Shown in pieces: positions 35-6,439 of a DNA stretch of 6,439 nt. Below the pieces are notes generated by a model that made no database searches, was not told where the DNA came from, and saw nothing but the letters and a program-made list of their open reading frames with translations. Source of the stretch: a virus (taxonomy: Duplodnaviria; Heunggongvirae; Uroviricota; Caudoviricetes); IMG/VR virus record IMGVR_UViG_2695420565_000002. One strand, written 5' to 3'. The position numbers and the translations under genes are program-made. Each line of letters begins with the position of its first letter. Position 1 is the stretch's first letter.

Positions 35-88
35 CCTGTTTACCTCTTTCTCAGGAAGTTTAGTCTCCAGGATTCCCGGGGCGGTTCA
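1..88 (-). mobile_element. Left end of an IS3-family insertion sequence (IS629/IS1203-like), partial; rest of element lies beyond the window start
   Basis: Minus strand reads 5'-TGAACCGCCCCGGGAATCCTGGAGACTAAACTTCCTGAGAAAGAGGTAAACAGG-ATG from position 88 downward: a TGA-initiated terminal inverted repeat followed by an SD and an ORF start encoding MTKNTRFSPEV, which I recall as the N-terminus of IS629-group OrfA. Identification is from memory, not a search. Confidence 0.75.
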
Positions 89-560
89 GTAAGGGGGTAT
101 TTGTATTTATTGTCTTTTGTATATTGTCTTTTGTGTTTAGCTGACTTGGCTTATACCCATTAGCCGACTTGGCTAATGTTTTATTAGCTGTTTTAGCTAA
201 TGTTAAGCTGTCCTGGCTAATCCACTGAGAAACCACCTTGTTCACTCCGATTTTCACGCCATCAGCAATGAGGAATTTACGCTCAATAAGCTGGCGCTTG
301 GCAGCGCAAACATGAGTGTGATGAATACCTGTCATGGCTGCTATCTGCGTGTTTGTGAGTCGATCCATCGGCTTATTGAATCCGTATGTCTTGCGCATGA
401 TAGCGAGCATCACCTTCAACTGCCGGACGGTTAAATCAGCCATCAGCAGACTGTCGGTAATCTCGTTAGCAACGCGCATGAAACCATCTTCGGTATCTGC
501 CACGCGATGCTCCACGACCTCCAGTTGAGGCCTGTAATCAGCTAACTTAACGACGCCCAT
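60..560 (-). CDS. O: Lambda O-like replication initiator, N-terminal iteron-binding domain intact; C-terminus replaced by IS-derived codons (truncated by IS insertion)
   Basis: 166-aa ORF; motif LTVRQLKVMLAIMRKTYGFNKPMDRLTNTQIAAMTG resembles lambda O N-terminal domain (LTKRQFKVLLAILRKTYGWNKPMDRITDSQL, recalled). Strong SD AGGAG 6 nt upstream of ATG at 560. Iterons lie inside the coding sequence as in lambda O. Codon 158 spans the IS junction at 88/89, so the last 8 residues and the stop (62..60) are encoded by the IS inverted repeat. Confidence 0.8.
   Translation of the reverse strand: MGVVKLADYRPQLEVVEHRVADTEDGFMRVANEITDSLLMADLTVRQLKVMLAIMRKTYGFNKPMDRLTNTQIAAMTGIHHTHVCAAKRQLIERKFLIADGVKIGVNKVVSQWISQDSLTLAKTANKTLAKSANGYKPSQLNTKDNIQKTINTNTPLLNRPGNPGD
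98..136. repeat. AT-rich region of the replication origin, with a 13-bp direct repeat TATTGTCTTTTGT at 108..120 and 122..134
   Basis: Directly visible; strongly T-rich on the plus strand, immediately flanking the iteron array, matching the iterons-then-AT-rich layout of ori-lambda when read in the O coding direction. Confidence 0.55.
137..220. repeat. Origin iterons: four imperfect 17-18 bp dyad-symmetric repeats (TTAGCyGnyTTrGCTAA)
   Basis: Copies at 137..153 TTAGCTGACTTGGCTTA, 160..176 TTAGCCGACTTGGCTAA, 184..200 TTAGCTGTTTTAGCTAA, 203..220 TTAAGCTGTCCTGGCTAA; spacing 23, 24, 19 bp; embedded in the O-like gene. Confidence 0.7.
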
Positions 561-717: not shown

Positions 718-785
718 TGTAGATTGATCCAGTCTTTCTACATCAGGCCTCGAAGAATTCGCCGTTCTTCGGGGCTTTTTCTTTT
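718..785 (+). ncRNA. Candidate OOP-like antisense RNA ending at an intrinsic terminator inside the cII 3' end
   Basis: Plus-strand hairpin with 11-bp stem 747..757/765..775 (one G-U pair), 7-nt loop, then TTTTTCTTTT 776..785; antisense to the last about 40 nt of cII. Possible extended -10 TGtCATAAT at 703..711. The 5' end is a guess. Confidence 0.4.
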
Positions 786-1024
786 GTCAGGTAATCGGCA
801 AGCCGCTTAGTCAATTCAGCCATTTCATCGTCTTCGATTCCGTATTCCAGAACAGCAAGCATCATGCTTACCTGCGAGAAGAAACCATTCTTCCATCGGC
901 TTACCTGATATTCAGGAACCCCCATTGCTCGAGCGAATGTCTTCTGCCCCATCAGTGCCAGTTTGTTCAGCAAGGCCGACTCGATGCGAGCCGCTTTCTT
1001 GCTTTTAGTTGCAATAGTACCCAT
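743..1024 (-). CDS. cII: Transcriptional activator CII (lambda cII homolog)
   Basis: 93 aa; RIESALLNKLALMG...QVSRWKNGF...FSQVSMMLAVLEYGIEDDEMAEL parallels lambda CII (RIESALLNKIAMLG...QISRWKRDWIPKFSMLLAVLEWGVVDDDMARL, recalled). SD AAGGA 8 nt upstream; located downstream of cro and nutR as in lambda. Confidence 0.9.
   Translation of the reverse strand: MGTIATKSKKAARIESALLNKLALMGQKTFARAMGVPEYQVSRWKNGFFSQVSMMLAVLEYGIEDDEMAELTKRLADYLTKEKAPKNGEFFEA
747..785 (+). terminator. Rho-independent terminator, antisense to cII 3' end
   Basis: GCCTCGAAGAA-ttcgccg-TTCTTCGGGGC followed by TTTTTCTTTT. Confidence 0.7.
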
Positions 1025-1100: not shown

Positions 1101-1132
1101 GCCCTTTTTCAGGGCGGGGATGTGTAAGAGCG
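1101..1132 (-). promoter_or_regulatory. nutR antitermination site (boxA + boxB)
   Basis: Minus strand reads CGCTCTTACACATCC (boxA, 1132..1118) then GCCCTGAAAAAGGGC (boxB, 1115..1101); boxB matches lambda nutR boxB as recalled; placed between cro and cII. Confidence 0.8.
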
Positions 1133-1140
1133 GGAATGTC

Positions 1141-1356
1141 TTAAGCGGCTTTGTGTTCCGGCGGGAACACGTCATCAAGACTGACTTTTGCGCCTAACTT
1201 GTTTAGGCACTCAACAAGAGCACGGCATGTTTTAAGGTCTGGGAAGCGACGACCAGATTCCCAATGTCCGATAGCTCCCTGTGTGCATCCAACTGCCTTA
1301 GCAAGTGTTGTTTGAGAGATATTCAGTGACTCTCGATATTTTCGTAGGTTGCTCAT
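1141..1356 (-). CDS. cro: Cro-like HTH repressor (71 aa), non-lambda immunity type
   Basis: ATG at 1356 preceded by GGAGG (4-nt spacer). [26 protein letters not shown] resembles the cI HTH in this window ([23 protein letters not shown]). Divergent from cI across an operator region. The track's longer ORF begins at a TTG inside the predicted pR -10 and is not used. Confidence 0.8.
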
Positions 1357-1382
1357 ATGCCCTCCATAGTAACCATGAAACA

Positions 1383-1411
1383 ATAATACGATATGTACTT
1401 TTAGAATGCAA
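1383..1411 (-). promoter_or_regulatory. pR-like promoter for cro/cII/O
   Basis: Minus strand -35 TTGCAT (plus 1406..1411), 17-bp spacer, -10 TATTAT (plus 1383..1388); operator OR1 lies in the spacer. Confidence 0.6.
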
Positions 1412-1457
1412 GCAAAAATACATCTTGTGCATGGATGGTTTTAGTACAGAGCGTAAT
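1385..1457. promoter_or_regulatory. Right operator region with three 15-bp candidate repressor sites of the form ArTAC-N5-GTnnT
   Basis: 1385..1399 AATACGATATGTACT, 1417..1431 AATACATCTTGTGCA, 1443..1457 AGTACAGAGCGTAAT; related to the perfect dyad AGTACAAATCGTACT at pL (2264..2278). Confidence 0.5.
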
Positions 1458-1472
1458 AATAAGGGTATGAAA

Positions 1473-2126
1473 ATGAAATGGTATGAACTGGCTAGATCCA
1501 GAATGAAAGAGCTCGGCATAACTCAAGAGAAGTTAGCTGAAGAGCTTGGTATGACGCAGGGTGGAATTGGTCACTGGTTGCGCGGATCTCGTCATCCATC
1601 TCTTGACGAGATTGGTGTGGTGTTTAAATACCTTGGTATTGATAACGTCTCATTCAACCACGACGGTACATTTTCACCTGTTGGCGAATACTCATCTGCC
1701 CCCGTTAAAAAACAATATGAGTACCCTGTTTTTTCTCATGTTCAGGCAGGGATGTTCTCGCCTGAGCTTAGAACCTTTACCAAAGGTGATGCGGAGAGAT
1801 GGGTCAGCACAACCAAAAAAGCCAGTGATTGTGCGTTTTGGCTTGAAGTTGAAGGTAATTCCATGACCGCGCCAACAGGATCGAAGCCAAGCTTTCCTGA
1901 CGGGATGTTAATTCTCGTTGACCCCGAGCAGGCTGTTGAGCCAGGTGATTTCTGCATAGCCAGACTTGGTGGTGACGAGTTTACCTTCAAGAAACTGATC
2001 AGGGATAGCGGTCAGGTGTTCCTACAGCCACTAAACCCGCAATATCCAATGATTCCATGCAATGATAGCTGTTCCGTAGTAGGGAAAGTTATCGCCAGCC
2101 AGTGGCCTGAAGAGACATTTAGTTAA
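1473..2126 (+). CDS. cI: CI-type prophage repressor with LexA/S24-like autocleavage domain; hybrid (novel N-terminal HTH domain, lambda-type C-terminal domain)
   Basis: From [38 protein letters not shown] onward the protein matches lambda CI C-terminal domain almost residue for residue (recalled); N-terminal 80 aa differ and carry an XRE-type HTH. Start chosen at ATG 1473 (AAGGG 7 nt upstream); ATG 1467 is an alternative. Confidence 0.92.
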
Positions 2127-2157
2127 CAGCCTCACCACTCTAAAACACACAACAATA

Positions 2158-2188
2158 ACCCGACCTTAGCGTCGGGTTTTCTTTTTCC
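2158..2188 (+). terminator. Rho-independent terminator downstream of cI
   Basis: ACCCGAC-cttagc-GTCGGGT 7-bp stem followed by TTTCTTTTTCC. Confidence 0.7.
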
Positions 2189-2251
2189 AAAATATAAACC
2201 CATTAAATACAAAGCGTTATAAAAAAGTAGTTATATTTAGAACATTTTGTA

Positions 2252-2287
2252 TTGACTCGATAAAGTACAAATCGTACTATTTAGCCA
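2252..2287 (+). promoter_or_regulatory. pL-like early-left promoter with operator OL1
   Basis: -35 TTGACT 2252..2257, 17-bp spacer, -10 TACTAT 2275..2280; perfect dyad AGTACAAATCGTACT 2264..2278 overlaps spacer and -10; downstream ATCAGCAGGACGCACTGACCACCATGAAGGTGA matches the lambda pL transcript start as recalled. Confidence 0.75.
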
Positions 2288-2319
2288 TCAGCAGGACGCA
2301 CTGACCACCATGAAGGTGA

Positions 2320-2350
2320 GGCTCTTAAAAATTAAGCCCTGAAGAAGGGC
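2320..2350 (+). promoter_or_regulatory. nutL antitermination site (boxA + boxB)
   Basis: GGCTCTTAAAAATTAA then boxB GCCCTGAAGAAGGGC (2336..2350), matching lambda nutL as recalled. Confidence 0.85.
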
Positions 2351-2548: not shown

Positions 2549-2881
2549 ATGGATGCACAAACACGCCGCCGCGAACGTCGCGCAGAGAAACAGGCTCAAT
2601 GGAAAGCAGCAAATCCCCTGTTGGTTGGGGTAAGCGCAAAACCAGTTAACCGCCCTATTCTCTCGCTGAATCGCAAACCGAAATCACGAGTAGAAAGCGC
2701 ACTGAATCCGATAGACCTTACAGTGCTGGCTGAATACCACGAACAGATTGAAAGCAACCTGCAACGTATTGAGCGCAAGAATCAGCGCACATGGTACAGC
2801 AAGCCACGCAGTGAAATGGGTGTGACCTGTTCAGGCCGCCAGAAGCAACGCGGAAAATCAATTCCAGCTTATTACGATTGA
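2549..2881 (+). CDS. N: Antitermination protein N
   Basis: 110 aa beginning MDAQTRRRERRAEKQAQWKAANPLLVGVSAKPVNRPILSLNRKPKSRVESALNPIDLTVLAEYH, matching lambda N from memory, including the arginine-rich boxB-binding motif; AGGAG SD; downstream of nutL. Confidence 0.95.
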   Translation: MDAQTRRRERRAEKQAQWKAANPLLVGVSAKPVNRPILSLNRKPKSRVESALNPIDLTVLAEYHEQIESNLQRIERKNQRTWYSKPRSEMGVTCSGRQKQRGKSIPAYYD

Positions 2882-6033: not shown

Positions 6034-6198
6034 ATGAGAGGACTTGCATACAATCCCGGCATTCTTCCGGCAGAAATGATTATTCGCCAACGCGTAAAGC
6101 CAATGCCATCGAGAGAGGAATTGCTTAAGAGAAATAGTTTCTGTTCTGTTAATGACAACAAATATCTGAATGCAATGTGGCGGAGTGGGAAAAAATGA
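6034..6198 (+). CDS. Hypothetical small protein (54 aa)
   Basis: TGAGGAA SD 6 nt upstream of ATG 6034; the track's longer ORF (5851..6198) overlaps the upstream gene and lacks an SD at its start. Confidence 0.45.
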
Positions 6199-6320
6199 CA
6201 ATCACAAAACAACGTGTAGAAGAAATCATATCCCGCATTGAAATGTATGGGCATGGTGCAGGGTATACCGCTGACGAGGTTTATGACCTGGCTGTACTGG
6301 CGCTGAATTTATCAAATTGA
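6195..6320 (+). CDS. Hypothetical small protein (41 aa), possibly a gene fragment terminated by the IS terminal TGA
   Basis: ATG 6195 overlaps the upstream stop (ATGA); [41 protein letters not shown]; its stop TGA 6318..6320 coincides with the first three bases of the IS inverted repeat. Confidence 0.4.
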
Positions 6321-6439
6321 GGTAGCCTGAGTTTAACGGACACTCCTTCCTGAAATAGAATGGCATCAGAAGGAGCTAATAATGAGCAGAAAAACCCAAC
6401 GTTACTCTAAAGAGTTCAAAGCCGAAGCTGTCAGAACGG
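6318..6439 (+). mobile_element. Left end of a second IS3-family insertion sequence (IS600-like), partial; continues beyond window end
   Basis: TGAGGTAGCCTGAGTTTAACGGACACTCC... terminal repeat starting with TGA, then AAGGAG SD and orfA start MSRKTQRYSKEFKAEAVRT. The SxEFKxEAV motif is typical of IS3-family OrfA HTH proteins; the IS600 assignment is from memory. Confidence 0.7.
6382..6439 (+). CDS. IS3-family transposase OrfA, N-terminal 19 codons (partial)
   Basis: ATG 6382, AAGGAG SD with 6-nt spacer; MSRKTQRYSKEFKAEAVRT. Confidence 0.7.
   Translation, partial: MSRKTQRYSKEFKAEAVRT

Follow-up and report, generated by a model that had tools for sequence, protein, structure and literature searches.

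A lambdoid immunity module of probable VT2-Sakai type, with a mosaic CI repressor and six predicted 15-bp operators

In the genetic switches of phages 434 and P22, the N-terminal domain of CI and the Cro protein are paralogous, all-alpha HTH domains that read the same operators. Engineered chimeras from the Hochschild laboratory, in which the C-terminal domain of lambda CI was placed on the N-terminal domain of the 434 or P22 repressor, reportedly kept cooperative binding.

Sequences and annotations of the immunity type considered here, from VT2-Sakai, Nil2 and an Stx1-converting phage, date from about 1999-2003, and the type has been classed as 'Clade I' of the Stx-phage CI proteins, the clade closest to lambda CI; it is already known and very common, and is not new. 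The Sakai-type group consists of VT2-Sakai (Sp5), AP005153, Stx2 II, Nil2, 2851 and the PA/PST1 phages, while Dewey, Louie, vB_EcoP-720R6, phi458 and 2B8 are non-Stx phages of the same type. Superinfection immunity and induction behaviour are set by this immunity type in a major class of Stx2a phages. The published operators of VT2-Sakai are predictions. The only EMSA that we found in the literature placed lambda CI on the VT2-Sakai operators, with weak, micromolar binding, and we found no published direct binding of the cognate CI or Cro to these predicted operators.

Here, these systems are compared with positions 1141-2290 of a viral DNA stretch of 6,439 nucleotides (IMG/VR virus record IMGVR_UViG_2695420565_000002), the whole of which is referred to below as the window.

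Gene layout and setting of the immunity region

The region contains a divergent gene pair, cro (1141-1356, minus strand) and cI (1473-2126, plus strand), with three predicted operators in the gap between the two genes and three more at pL, upstream of N. Divergent cI and cro with tripartite OR and OL dyads constitute the arrangement of a lambdoid immunity region. The near-identical CI N-terminal domain, Cro and six operators that distinguish the VT2-Sakai / Stx1-phage / Nil2 type are all found here, and we are highly confident that this is the lysis/lysogeny switch, or immunity module, of a lambdoid phage of that type. The features of the module and its surroundings are as follows.

743-1024, minus strand: cII (Phage_CII, E=4e-30), not the lambda allele
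999-1012, plus strand: TTGC-N6-TTGC, a pRE-like repeat read from the sequence
1101-1115, minus strand: nutR boxB, GCCCTGAAAAAGGGC, downstream of cro, read directly from the sequence
1141-1356, minus strand: cro, 71 aa, all-alpha HTH_3 (Pfam E=1.4e-12)
1473-2126, plus strand: cI, 217 aa, HTH_3 and Peptidase_S24 (Pfam)
1473-1715, plus strand: cI N-terminal domain and immunity-specific part of the linker, aa 1-81, recognition helix TQGGIGHW
1716-2126, plus strand: cI lambda-type cleavage-site region and S24 dimerisation/autocleavage domain, aa 82-217
2157-2186, plus strand: intrinsic terminator after cI, a stem-loop followed by a T run
2336-2350, plus strand: nutL boxB, GCCCTGAAGAAGGGC, a hairpin within a 98.9% lambda match that covers the annotated lambda NutL
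2549-2881, plus strand: lambda-type N antiterminator (Pfam N36, E=1.6e-26), the first gene transcribed from pL

Judging from lambda, we take the TTGC repeat at 999-1012 to be pRE and the element at 1101-1115 to be the lambda boxB; the nutR region aligns to lambda nutR-cII at 65%. Downstream of cI, window 2149-2184 matches lambda 35799-35834, the terminator region downstream of rexB, at 89% identity, and rexA and rexB themselves are absent from the window. A lambda-like leader with nutL, 98.9% identical to lambda, starts at 2286 and is followed by an N gene that is 99.3% identical to lambda N at the nucleotide level over 286 bp, in a backbone that is P22/Sf6-like.

The preliminary description, made from the DNA letters, had held that the N-terminal HTH domain of CI, Cro and the operators were not those of lambda, and the features that define imm-lambda were indeed not found: the front 81 residues of CI are 25% identical to lambda CI (20/81), Cro gives no BLASTP alignment with lambda Cro and no detectable similarity to it, and a search of both OR and OL returned no lambda-type operator. 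The description nevertheless went too far for the N-terminal domain, which is also HTH_3, gives weak PDB matches to 1LLI/1LMB and is a distant homologue of its lambda counterpart, that is, another specificity allele of the same kind of domain.

An IS3-family element lies at either end of the window and O is shortened to 166 aa; the copy in the window is an IS-flanked prophage remnant, and a scan of complete E. coli genomes found none that contains at least 80% of the window. Representative genomes, scanned for exact copies of the IS/O junction, yielded none, and a degenerate pattern for OR2-OR3 matched only one E. coli contig and two MAG contigs that are probably mis-binned. The IS600 and IS3-family content hints at Shigella or E. 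coli as the host. An IS-flanked remnant with a truncated O would also be expected of a dead relic, an IS-disrupted prophage in which the switch at this locus is no longer expressed or functional, but we think this improbable, as cI, cro, the six operators, pL, the terminator and N are intact and 99-100% identical to those of isolated phages (for CI and Cro, the phages Dewey, 720R6 and phi458). Moreover, the repressors retained by defective prophages commonly still confer immunity.

The two parts of CI and the age of their junction

The N-terminal part of CI has its HTH_3 domain at aa 9-56 (Pfam E=8.3e-11) and an alternative start codon at 1467. Comparison with phage repressors gave 96% identity (78/81 aa) to the Stx1 phage / VT2-Sakai type, and Cro is likewise identical at 70/71 aa to the putative cro of the Stx1-converting phage AP005153. 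From Y82 (window 1716) to its end, CI is identical to lambda CI at 133/136 aa (98%); the Peptidase_S24 domain (Pfam E=8.7e-29) matches the lambda CI C-terminal structures 3bdn, 8gmu and 1f39 in the PDB, and Ala92-Gly93, Ser130 and Lys173 fall opposite their lambda counterparts, within the same surrounding sequence. An HTH domain, an S24 Ser/Lys dyad and an Ala-Gly in the linker are the marks of the LexA/CI-type autocleaving repressors, all present in this protein, and the 98% identity of its cleavage module to that of lambda suggests RecA-stimulated self-cleavage leading to induction.

Within cI, homology to lambda DNA starts abruptly at window 1716 and ends at the stop codon. CI is a natural domain mosaic, and its point of exchange falls within the linker, immediately ahead of the cleavage site. 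A junction inside cI had been proposed in the preliminary description and alignment to lambda cI now locates it at residue 82. The accompanying claim of a lambda-identical C-terminal domain was upheld as near-identity for the protein but does not extend to the DNA: here identity to lambda is no more than 92.7%, and of the codons that differ, 26 do so synonymously and 3 non-synonymously.

This divergence bears directly on the age of the junction. A recent swap, in which a lambda phage or lambda-immunity prophage took over the N-terminal domain, OR and cro of a heteroimmune phage, would account for both the sharp homology boundary inside cI and the 99% identity of the neighbouring pL leader and N to lambda, but not for C-terminal DNA with 26 synonymous changes, far more diverged than N. 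Pairwise identities among the C-terminal alleles of the window type, the Sakai type and lambda are all 91-93%, which makes the three about equally distant from one another. The same mosaic occurs in more than 60 phage records, its immunity-specific 575 bp turned up in 776 (~14%) of the 5426 complete E. coli genomes, and in S137 and g341c still other N-terminal types are fused to lambda-like C-terminal domains at this junction. Among the phage records, we saw no lambda-immunity phage with cI C-terminal DNA more than 99% identical to that of the window; the lambda-immunity matches to this domain were identical at the protein level only. The reading as a fresh lambda recombinant was rejected because of the divergence of the C-terminal DNA, and we give it very little credence.

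The junction is not recent, since the C-terminal DNA is 92.7% and the neighbouring N gene 99.3% identical to lambda, and the module in the window is instead a mosaic allele that is old and stable. Its cro-OR-cI segment recurs at 93-99% DNA identity in VT2-Sakai, the Stx1-converting AP005153, Nil2, 2851 and many non-Stx phages. Neither repressor can be singled out as the hybrid protein, and lambda CI could equally be the changed one. As a discovery the module is of little importance. It does offer a clear textbook example of mosaicism between the domains of phage repressors: a highly constrained cleavage/oligomerisation module is common to at least four DNA-binding specificities and is always joined to them at the same linker position.

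Predicted operators and promoters

Cro and the CI N-terminal domain are 35% identical (E=4e-13) and, as the preliminary description had noticed, their recognition helices are similar (TQGGIGHW in CI, TQGAIGHW in Cro). Cro, for which the N-terminal domain of P22 C2 is a weak PDB match, is a paralogue of the CI N-terminal domain. The sites that the two proteins would share, and the promoters that these sites would control, are listed below.

1383-1411, minus strand: candidate pR, TTGCAT-17-TATTAT, -35 at 1411-1406 and -10 at 1388-1383
1385-1399: predicted OR1, AATACGATATGTACT, pattern on both strands, overlapping the pR -10 and spacer
1417-1431: predicted OR2, AATACATCTTGTGCA, abutting the pRM -35, centre at about -43 from the ATG at 1467
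1432-1460, plus strand: candidate pRM, TGGATG-17-AATAAT, 8/12, the best plus-strand consensus match in the gap
1443-1457: predicted OR3, AGTACAGAGCGTAAT, pattern match, overlapping the pRM -10
2206-2220: predicted OL3, AATACAAAGCGTTAT, pattern match, annotated as a putative operator in AP005153
2239-2253: predicted OL2, AGAACATTTTGTATT, pattern on the minus strand, overlapping the pL -35
2252-2280, plus strand: pL, TTGACT-17-TACTAT, 9/12 in a standard promoter scan
2264-2278: predicted OL1, AGTACAAATCGTACT, a perfect dyad, overlapping the pL spacer and -10

The operator pattern ARTAC-N5-GTNNT (ARTACNNNNNGTNNT) gave seven strand-matches at five sites (1385, 1443, 2206, 2239 and 2264), confined to the two control regions; chance level, taken from 200 shuffles, was 0.23 matches, and seven were reached in 0/200. 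These are the five operators of the preliminary description, which also recognized the perfect dyad overlapping pL, but the total is six. The site that had been missed, OR2, is one base off the pattern (it ends in A) and has two mismatches to the consensus for the 15-bp dyads, ARTAC-N5-GTAYT. Its position and half-sites are kept in six relatives and it is annotated as a putative operator in AP005153, as is OR1 at the same position, the half-sites of which are also kept in relatives. OR2 and OL3 each deviate from the consensus in one half-site. The operators are spaced 32/26 bp apart in OR and 25/33 bp apart in OL. With 32 bp between OR1 and OR2, against 24 bp in lambda, pairwise cooperativity in the lambda style is not guaranteed at these two sites despite the near-identical C-terminal domain.

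Comparison with related phages revealed that substitutions avoid the half-sites. Between the window and VT2-Sakai, changes fall at 1/60 half-site positions, 6/30 central positions and 34/123 other intergenic positions (Fisher tests: half-sites versus central, p=0.005; versus other intergenic, p=5e-6), and a comparison with phage 2B8 shows the same pattern of conserved half-sites with drifting central bases and flanks. Operator number and spacing (3+3) are kept in six relatives, though inserted genes place OL 0.1-2 kb from cI, and in the independent annotation of AP005153, pR, pRM and a set of six putative operators stand at matching positions. That the dyads might be AT-rich coincidences of promoter regions while the repressor reads another motif would suit the off-consensus half-sites of OR2 and OL3 and operators that are, in the cognate systems, predicted only, but is very unlikely given the excess of matches over chance, the selective conservation of half-sites in two independent comparisons, the 3+3 layout kept at both promoters and the ATAC-N5-GTAT core annotated in phages whose N-terminal domain is 55% identical. 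Motif enrichment, half-site conservation and CI/Cro paralogy together argue for shared 15-bp operators, as had been proposed.

Only pL was returned by the standard promoter scan; pR and pRM fall below its threshold and come from a relaxed custom scan, so that both are best regarded as candidates drawn from weak consensus matches (8/12 each). The candidate pR is the best minus-strand match in the cro-cI gap and coincides with the 'putative major rightward promoter' annotated in AP005153. The start predicted for pRM, near the ATG at 1467, suggests a leaderless cI mRNA as in lambda. The geometry of pRM relative to OR2 and OR3 presumably also resembles that of lambda.

Proposed switch and comparison with known systems

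In the switch that we propose, CI would bind as a dimer, through its HTH_3 N-terminal domain, to the six 15-bp dyads of consensus ARTAC-N5-GTAYT. At OR1 and OL1, which lie over the -10 and spacer of pR and pL, it would shut off transcription of cro and N, and at OR2, adjoining the weak -35 of pRM, it could activate its own, probably leaderless, transcript. Cro, acting at the same sites, would turn down pRM, the -10 of which is overlapped by OR3, and later the early promoters as well. The C-terminal two-thirds of CI, comprising the Ala-Gly hinge and the S24 Ser/Lys domain, would provide dimerisation, dimer-dimer cooperativity and the RecA-stimulated self-cleavage needed for SOS induction. OL is a second immunity-specific patch, with lambda-like DNA between OL and OR.

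Three further readings, which we consider doubtful when taken jointly, concern the consequences of such a design. Because the dimerisation/cooperativity domain is 98% identical, lambda-immunity and Sakai-type CI may form mixed dimers or tetramers/octamers in E. coli strains with several lambdoid prophages; if so, two nominally heteroimmune switches would be coupled or destabilised. The remnant between the IS elements, in which cI and the operators are still intact, may persist as a domesticated cassette that shields its host from Sakai-type (including Stx2a) phages. Lastly, the conserved distances of 32 bp for OR1-OR2 and 25-26 bp for OR2-OR3 and OL1-OL2 could reflect a cooperative pairing other than lambda's, despite the same C-terminal domain.

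The closest known systems are the Stx phages of the Sakai type and the non-Stx phages that share their immunity type. The CI C-terminal domain is identical to that of the Stx1 phage at 132/136 aa, and the window has the same six operators as the Sakai type, at the same spacing, with 59/60 half-site positions identical to VT2-Sakai. Identical recognition helices make it probable that the window and the Sakai-type phages are homoimmune. The window differs from the Sakai-type allele at ~7% of the DNA, with most of the changes at the centres of operators, in the spacers between genes and at synonymous sites; where the Stx phages have an additional 1.4-2 kb of genes separating cI from OL, the window has the terminator only.

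With lambda, the window shares divergent cI and cro, 3+3 operators, a first operator over the -10 of both pR and pL, an OR2 that adjoins the weak -35 of pRM, a CI hinge, cleavage site and S24 domain that are 98% identical, the same N, the boxB elements of nutL and nutR and the same terminator after the cI operon. Unlike lambda, it has an HTH_3 Cro that is unrelated in sequence to lambda Cro, 15-bp ARTAC-N5-GTAYT dyads in place of 17-bp sites, operator spacings of 32/26 and 25/33 bp rather than 24/23 and 24/20, and neither rexA nor rexB.

More distant relatives are the C1 proteins of Salmonella phages g341c, epsilon34 and SPN9CC, which are full-length homologues of the window CI. Identity to the g341c group is 55% in the N-terminal domain, 79% in the C-terminal domain and 46% in Cro. 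The repressor sites annotated in this group, ATAC-N5-GTAT, share the operator core of the window but are 13-bp only, and the group has a distinct allele, with the recognition helix TKGAVSHW rather than TQGGIGHW. Finally, CI in the window embodies the same design as the engineered chimeric repressors, with the difference that it is a natural allele and has operator sequences other than those of 434 and P22.

Gene organization and borders of the fragment

The window carries a lambdoid early region in the orientation opposite to that of the standard lambda map. Its main features are as follows.

60-560, minus strand: truncated O (Pfam Phage_rep_O)
743-1024, minus: cII (Pfam Phage_CII)
1101-1115, minus: lambda-type nutR boxB
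1141-1356, minus: cro (Pfam HTH_3)
116 bp between cro and cI: control region
1473-2126, plus: cI (Pfam HTH_3 and Peptidase_S24), with a second in-frame ATG at 1467
2157-2186: intrinsic terminator, 3' of cI
2252-2280: pL (TTGACT-17-TACTAT), in a second control region
2336-2350: nutL boxB, in a lambda-type leader
2549-2881: lambda-type N (Pfam N36 peptide of N)

We take the nutR boxB at 1101-1115 (minus strand) to match that of lambda. A TTGC-N6-TTGC repeat, TTGCTTTTAGTTGC, lies at 999-1012 on the plus (cI-sense) strand within the 5' end of cII; its location presumably corresponds to the CII-binding site of lambda pRE and, by this analogy, it probably serves as the establishment promoter of cI. 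To the right of N is a P22/Sf6-like recombination region (erf, ssb and an anti-RecBCD-like gene).

Phage homology spans only about 89 to about 6198-6317. Positions 1-75 are 100% identical to IS3-family element ends, and positions 6315-6439, just after a small ORF (6177-6320), are IS600 at 100% identity (orfA start MSRKTQRYSKEFKAEAVRT at 6383); the window therefore represents a piece of prophage with an insertion sequence at either end. An IS3-family transposase ORF (MTKNTRFSPEV...) starts on the minus strand at the left end. Since the O ORF is cut to 166 aa, comprising the N-terminal O domain only, the remnant is replication-defective. The remaining O coding region contains, at 100-235, repeated TTAGC(T/C)GACTTGGCT(T/A)AT-like units and a duplicated TATTGTCTTTTGT, probably the ori iterons of this O allele. 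Within this remnant the immunity genes and sites have stayed intact, at 99-100% identity to their counterparts in isolated phages; judged from sequence, it may still make its host immune to Sakai-type phages.

The repressors and the mosaic around them

The preliminary description portrayed CI as a lambda-type C-terminal domain joined to a foreign DNA-binding domain, and BLASTP bears this out, with near-complete identity to lambda CI from the linker to the C-terminus and weak similarity N-terminal to it. The first 81 residues are 25% identical to lambda's, although both domains belong to HTH_3, and give weak PDB matches to lambda N-terminal structures. 'Lambda-identical', the term applied to the C-terminal domain, holds for protein but not for DNA: from Y82 (window 1716), 133/136 residues are identical, compared with 381/411 nucleotides (92.7%) codon by codon, with 26 synonymous and three non-synonymous codon differences (C120/S, D198/E, S217/G). 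Ser130 and Lys173 align with the lambda catalytic pair, and cleavage is predicted at Ala92-Gly93. In DNA alignment and local BLAST, the lambda homology block of cI spans 1716-2120, with no similarity to lambda detected in cI 5' of 1716. The junction therefore lies inside cI, as had been proposed, in the inter-domain linker ten residues N-terminal to the Ala-Gly cleavage site.

Cro, likewise described as not being lambda's, gave no BLASTP alignment to lambda Cro. It is 35% identical to the CI N-terminal domain (E=4e-13), and the predicted recognition helix, ...TQG(G/A)IGHW..., is common to both proteins, in agreement with the likeness first noticed by eye. The sole solved close relative of Cro in the PDB is 28tn, a recent 82-aa 'lambda repressor-like protein' (E=2.4e-16, residues 1-69); the PDB holds no structure for the CI N-terminal domain of Sakai-type immunity.

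The lambda homology of the window falls in blocks of very different age.

Identity to lambda by segment
N gene: 99.3%
pL leader and nutL: 98.9%
cI C-terminal segment: 93.3%
Terminator after cI: 89% (counterpart downstream of lambda rexB)
nutR-cII region: 65%
cro, OR, cI N-terminal domain, OL: no homology detected

Between any two of the window-type, Sakai-type and lambda alleles, the C-terminal segments are 90.8-92.9% identical in DNA and 97-99% identical in protein, and they therefore represent an old, strongly constrained unit serving two immunity specificities; the N-terminal domains of the window and Sakai types are 95% identical in DNA. A recent graft of this module from lambda is rejected by the divergence among the alleles, so that the junction is old, and the sequences do not indicate whether lambda CI or the window CI is the hybrid partner. 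Salmonella phage S137 (L010, 1764-2411) joins a third, unrelated N-terminal domain to a lambda-like C-terminal module (82% identical), and Salmonella phage g341c (L009, 1737-2411) provides a fourth combination (79%). Both junctions fall at exactly the same linker position, beginning (Y/F), suggesting that repressors of this family have repeatedly exchanged domains there.

The lambda genes rexA and rexB are absent and the terminator directly follows the cI stop (window 2127-2186 versus lambda 35799-35834), implying that this cI operon is lambda's minus both genes. In relatives, the post-cI slot holds a 1047-nt ORF (phi458), an 858-nt ORF (2B8) or several ORFs (Stx phages), which would fit an insertion hot spot for cargo genes. 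Between nutL and the start of N, about 145 bp (2376-2519) lack a lambda counterpart, with flanks that match lambda at 99%; by alignment, this is a small substitution within an otherwise lambda-identical pL-N segment.

Operators and promoters

All five operators initially proposed match the motif ARTACNNNNNGTNNT, two of them on both strands (seven strand-matches); shuffled sequence is expected to yield 0.23 matches, and 0/200 shuffles reached seven. A sixth site, OR2, must be added.

Putative operators in the cro-cI gap (OR) and at pL (OL)
OR1, 1385-1399: AATACGATATGTACT
OR2, 1417-1431: AATACATCTTGTGCA (departs from the motif only at the last base)
OR3, 1443-1457: AGTACAGAGCGTAAT
OL3, 2206-2220: AATACAAAGCGTTAT
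OL2, 2239-2253: AGAACATTTTGTATT
OL1, 2264-2278: AGTACAAATCGTACT (perfect dyad)

The symmetric consensus is A-R-T-A-C-N5-G-T-A-Y-T. As first reported, the perfect dyad, OL1, overlaps pL, covering its spacer and -10; OL2 overlaps the -35. The best promoter matches in the gap, each 8/12 to consensus, are a candidate pR on the minus strand (TTGCAT-17-TATTAT, 1411-1383), whose -10 and spacer OR1 overlaps, and a candidate pRM on the plus strand (TGGATG-17-AATAAT, 1432-1460), whose -35 adjoins OR2 and whose -10 is covered by OR3. We infer both assignments from sequence. The start predicted for the candidate pRM is near the ATG at 1467, and therefore points to a lambda-like leaderless cI mRNA.

In the mechanism that we envisage, CI dimers on OR1 and OL1 would block pR and pL, CI on OR2 may activate pRM, and OR3 would give negative autoregulation, with Cro competing for these operators. 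Dimerization, cooperativity and RecA-dependent cleavage would come from the lambda-type C-terminal domain.

Between the window and VT2-Sakai (the Sakai Stx2a phage), differences affect 1/60 half-site positions, 6/30 central positions and 34/123 other intergenic positions (half-site versus central, Fisher p = 0.005; versus other intergenic, 5e-6), and comparison with 2B8 gave the same result. The half-sites are thus selectively conserved, and the central five bases behave, in these comparisons, like uncontacted spacer.

A known immunity type and its relation to lambda

The region is the immunity module of the VT2-Sakai/Stx1-phage/Nil2 type. Megablast of 1141-2290 matched 101 phage records, four of them (vB_EcoP-720R6, Dewey, 683R2 and Louie) over the full length at 98.8-99.1%; phi458 is 97.8% identical. 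In about ninety Stx and related phages, including Nil2, the Stx1-converting phage, Stx2 II, 2851, the PA series and 2B8, cro-OR-cI is 92.9-93.9% identical, and VT2-Sakai shares the layout and operators. Of 5426 complete E. coli genomes, 776 contain the immunity-specific 575 bp (1141-1715). Klebsiella phage phiKp_30 (LC768498.2, 704-916) encodes, near the start of its record, a protein 97% identical to the window Cro; the type therefore reaches beyond Escherichia and Shigella.

AP005153, the Stx1-converting phage record, annotates 17-bp 'putative operators' at precisely these six sites, and also a putative pR and pRM. Yin et al. 2015 equate their PST1 phages with the Sakai Stx2a prophage, for which they give predicted OR1-3 and OL1-3, crediting Fattah et al. 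2000. In the classification of Fagerlund et al. 2022, VT2-Sakai-type CI belongs to 'Clade I', nearest of the clades to lambda CI (61% overall identity). Sedhom and Solomon, noting no published CI-DNA structure for VT2-Sakai, observed weak binding of lambda CI to the six annotated VT2-Sakai operators by EMSA (apparent Kd 4-6 µM); we found no direct biochemistry of the cognate repressor. In g341c, whose C1 repressor has an N-terminal domain 55% identical to that of the window CI, the annotated repressor-binding sites (ATACACATCGTAT, ATACAAATTGTAT and ATACAAAATGTAT) have the same ATAC-N5-GTAT core as the window operators. Phage records, annotations and E. coli counts therefore mark the module as known, annotated and very common; the feature is an ordinary one.

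The six sites keep their order and spacing in VT2-Sakai, the Stx1-converting phage, Nil2, 720R6, phi458 and 2B8 (centre to centre, OR1-OR2 32-33 bp, OR2-OR3 26 bp, OL3-OL2 33 bp, OL2-OL1 25 bp), although inserted genes vary the distance from cI stop to OL from ~0.1 kb to ~2 kb. The OR2-OR3 and OL1-OL2 spacings are lambda-like, roughly 2.4 helical turns, while the 32 bp of OR1-OR2, about three turns, are conserved in all relatives examined and so are a property of the family, not of the window. Lambda's operator spacing differs from this asymmetric pattern despite a 98%-identical C-terminal cooperativity domain and, with a cooperativity surface essentially like lambda's, CI may favour cooperative operator pairs other than those favoured in lambda.
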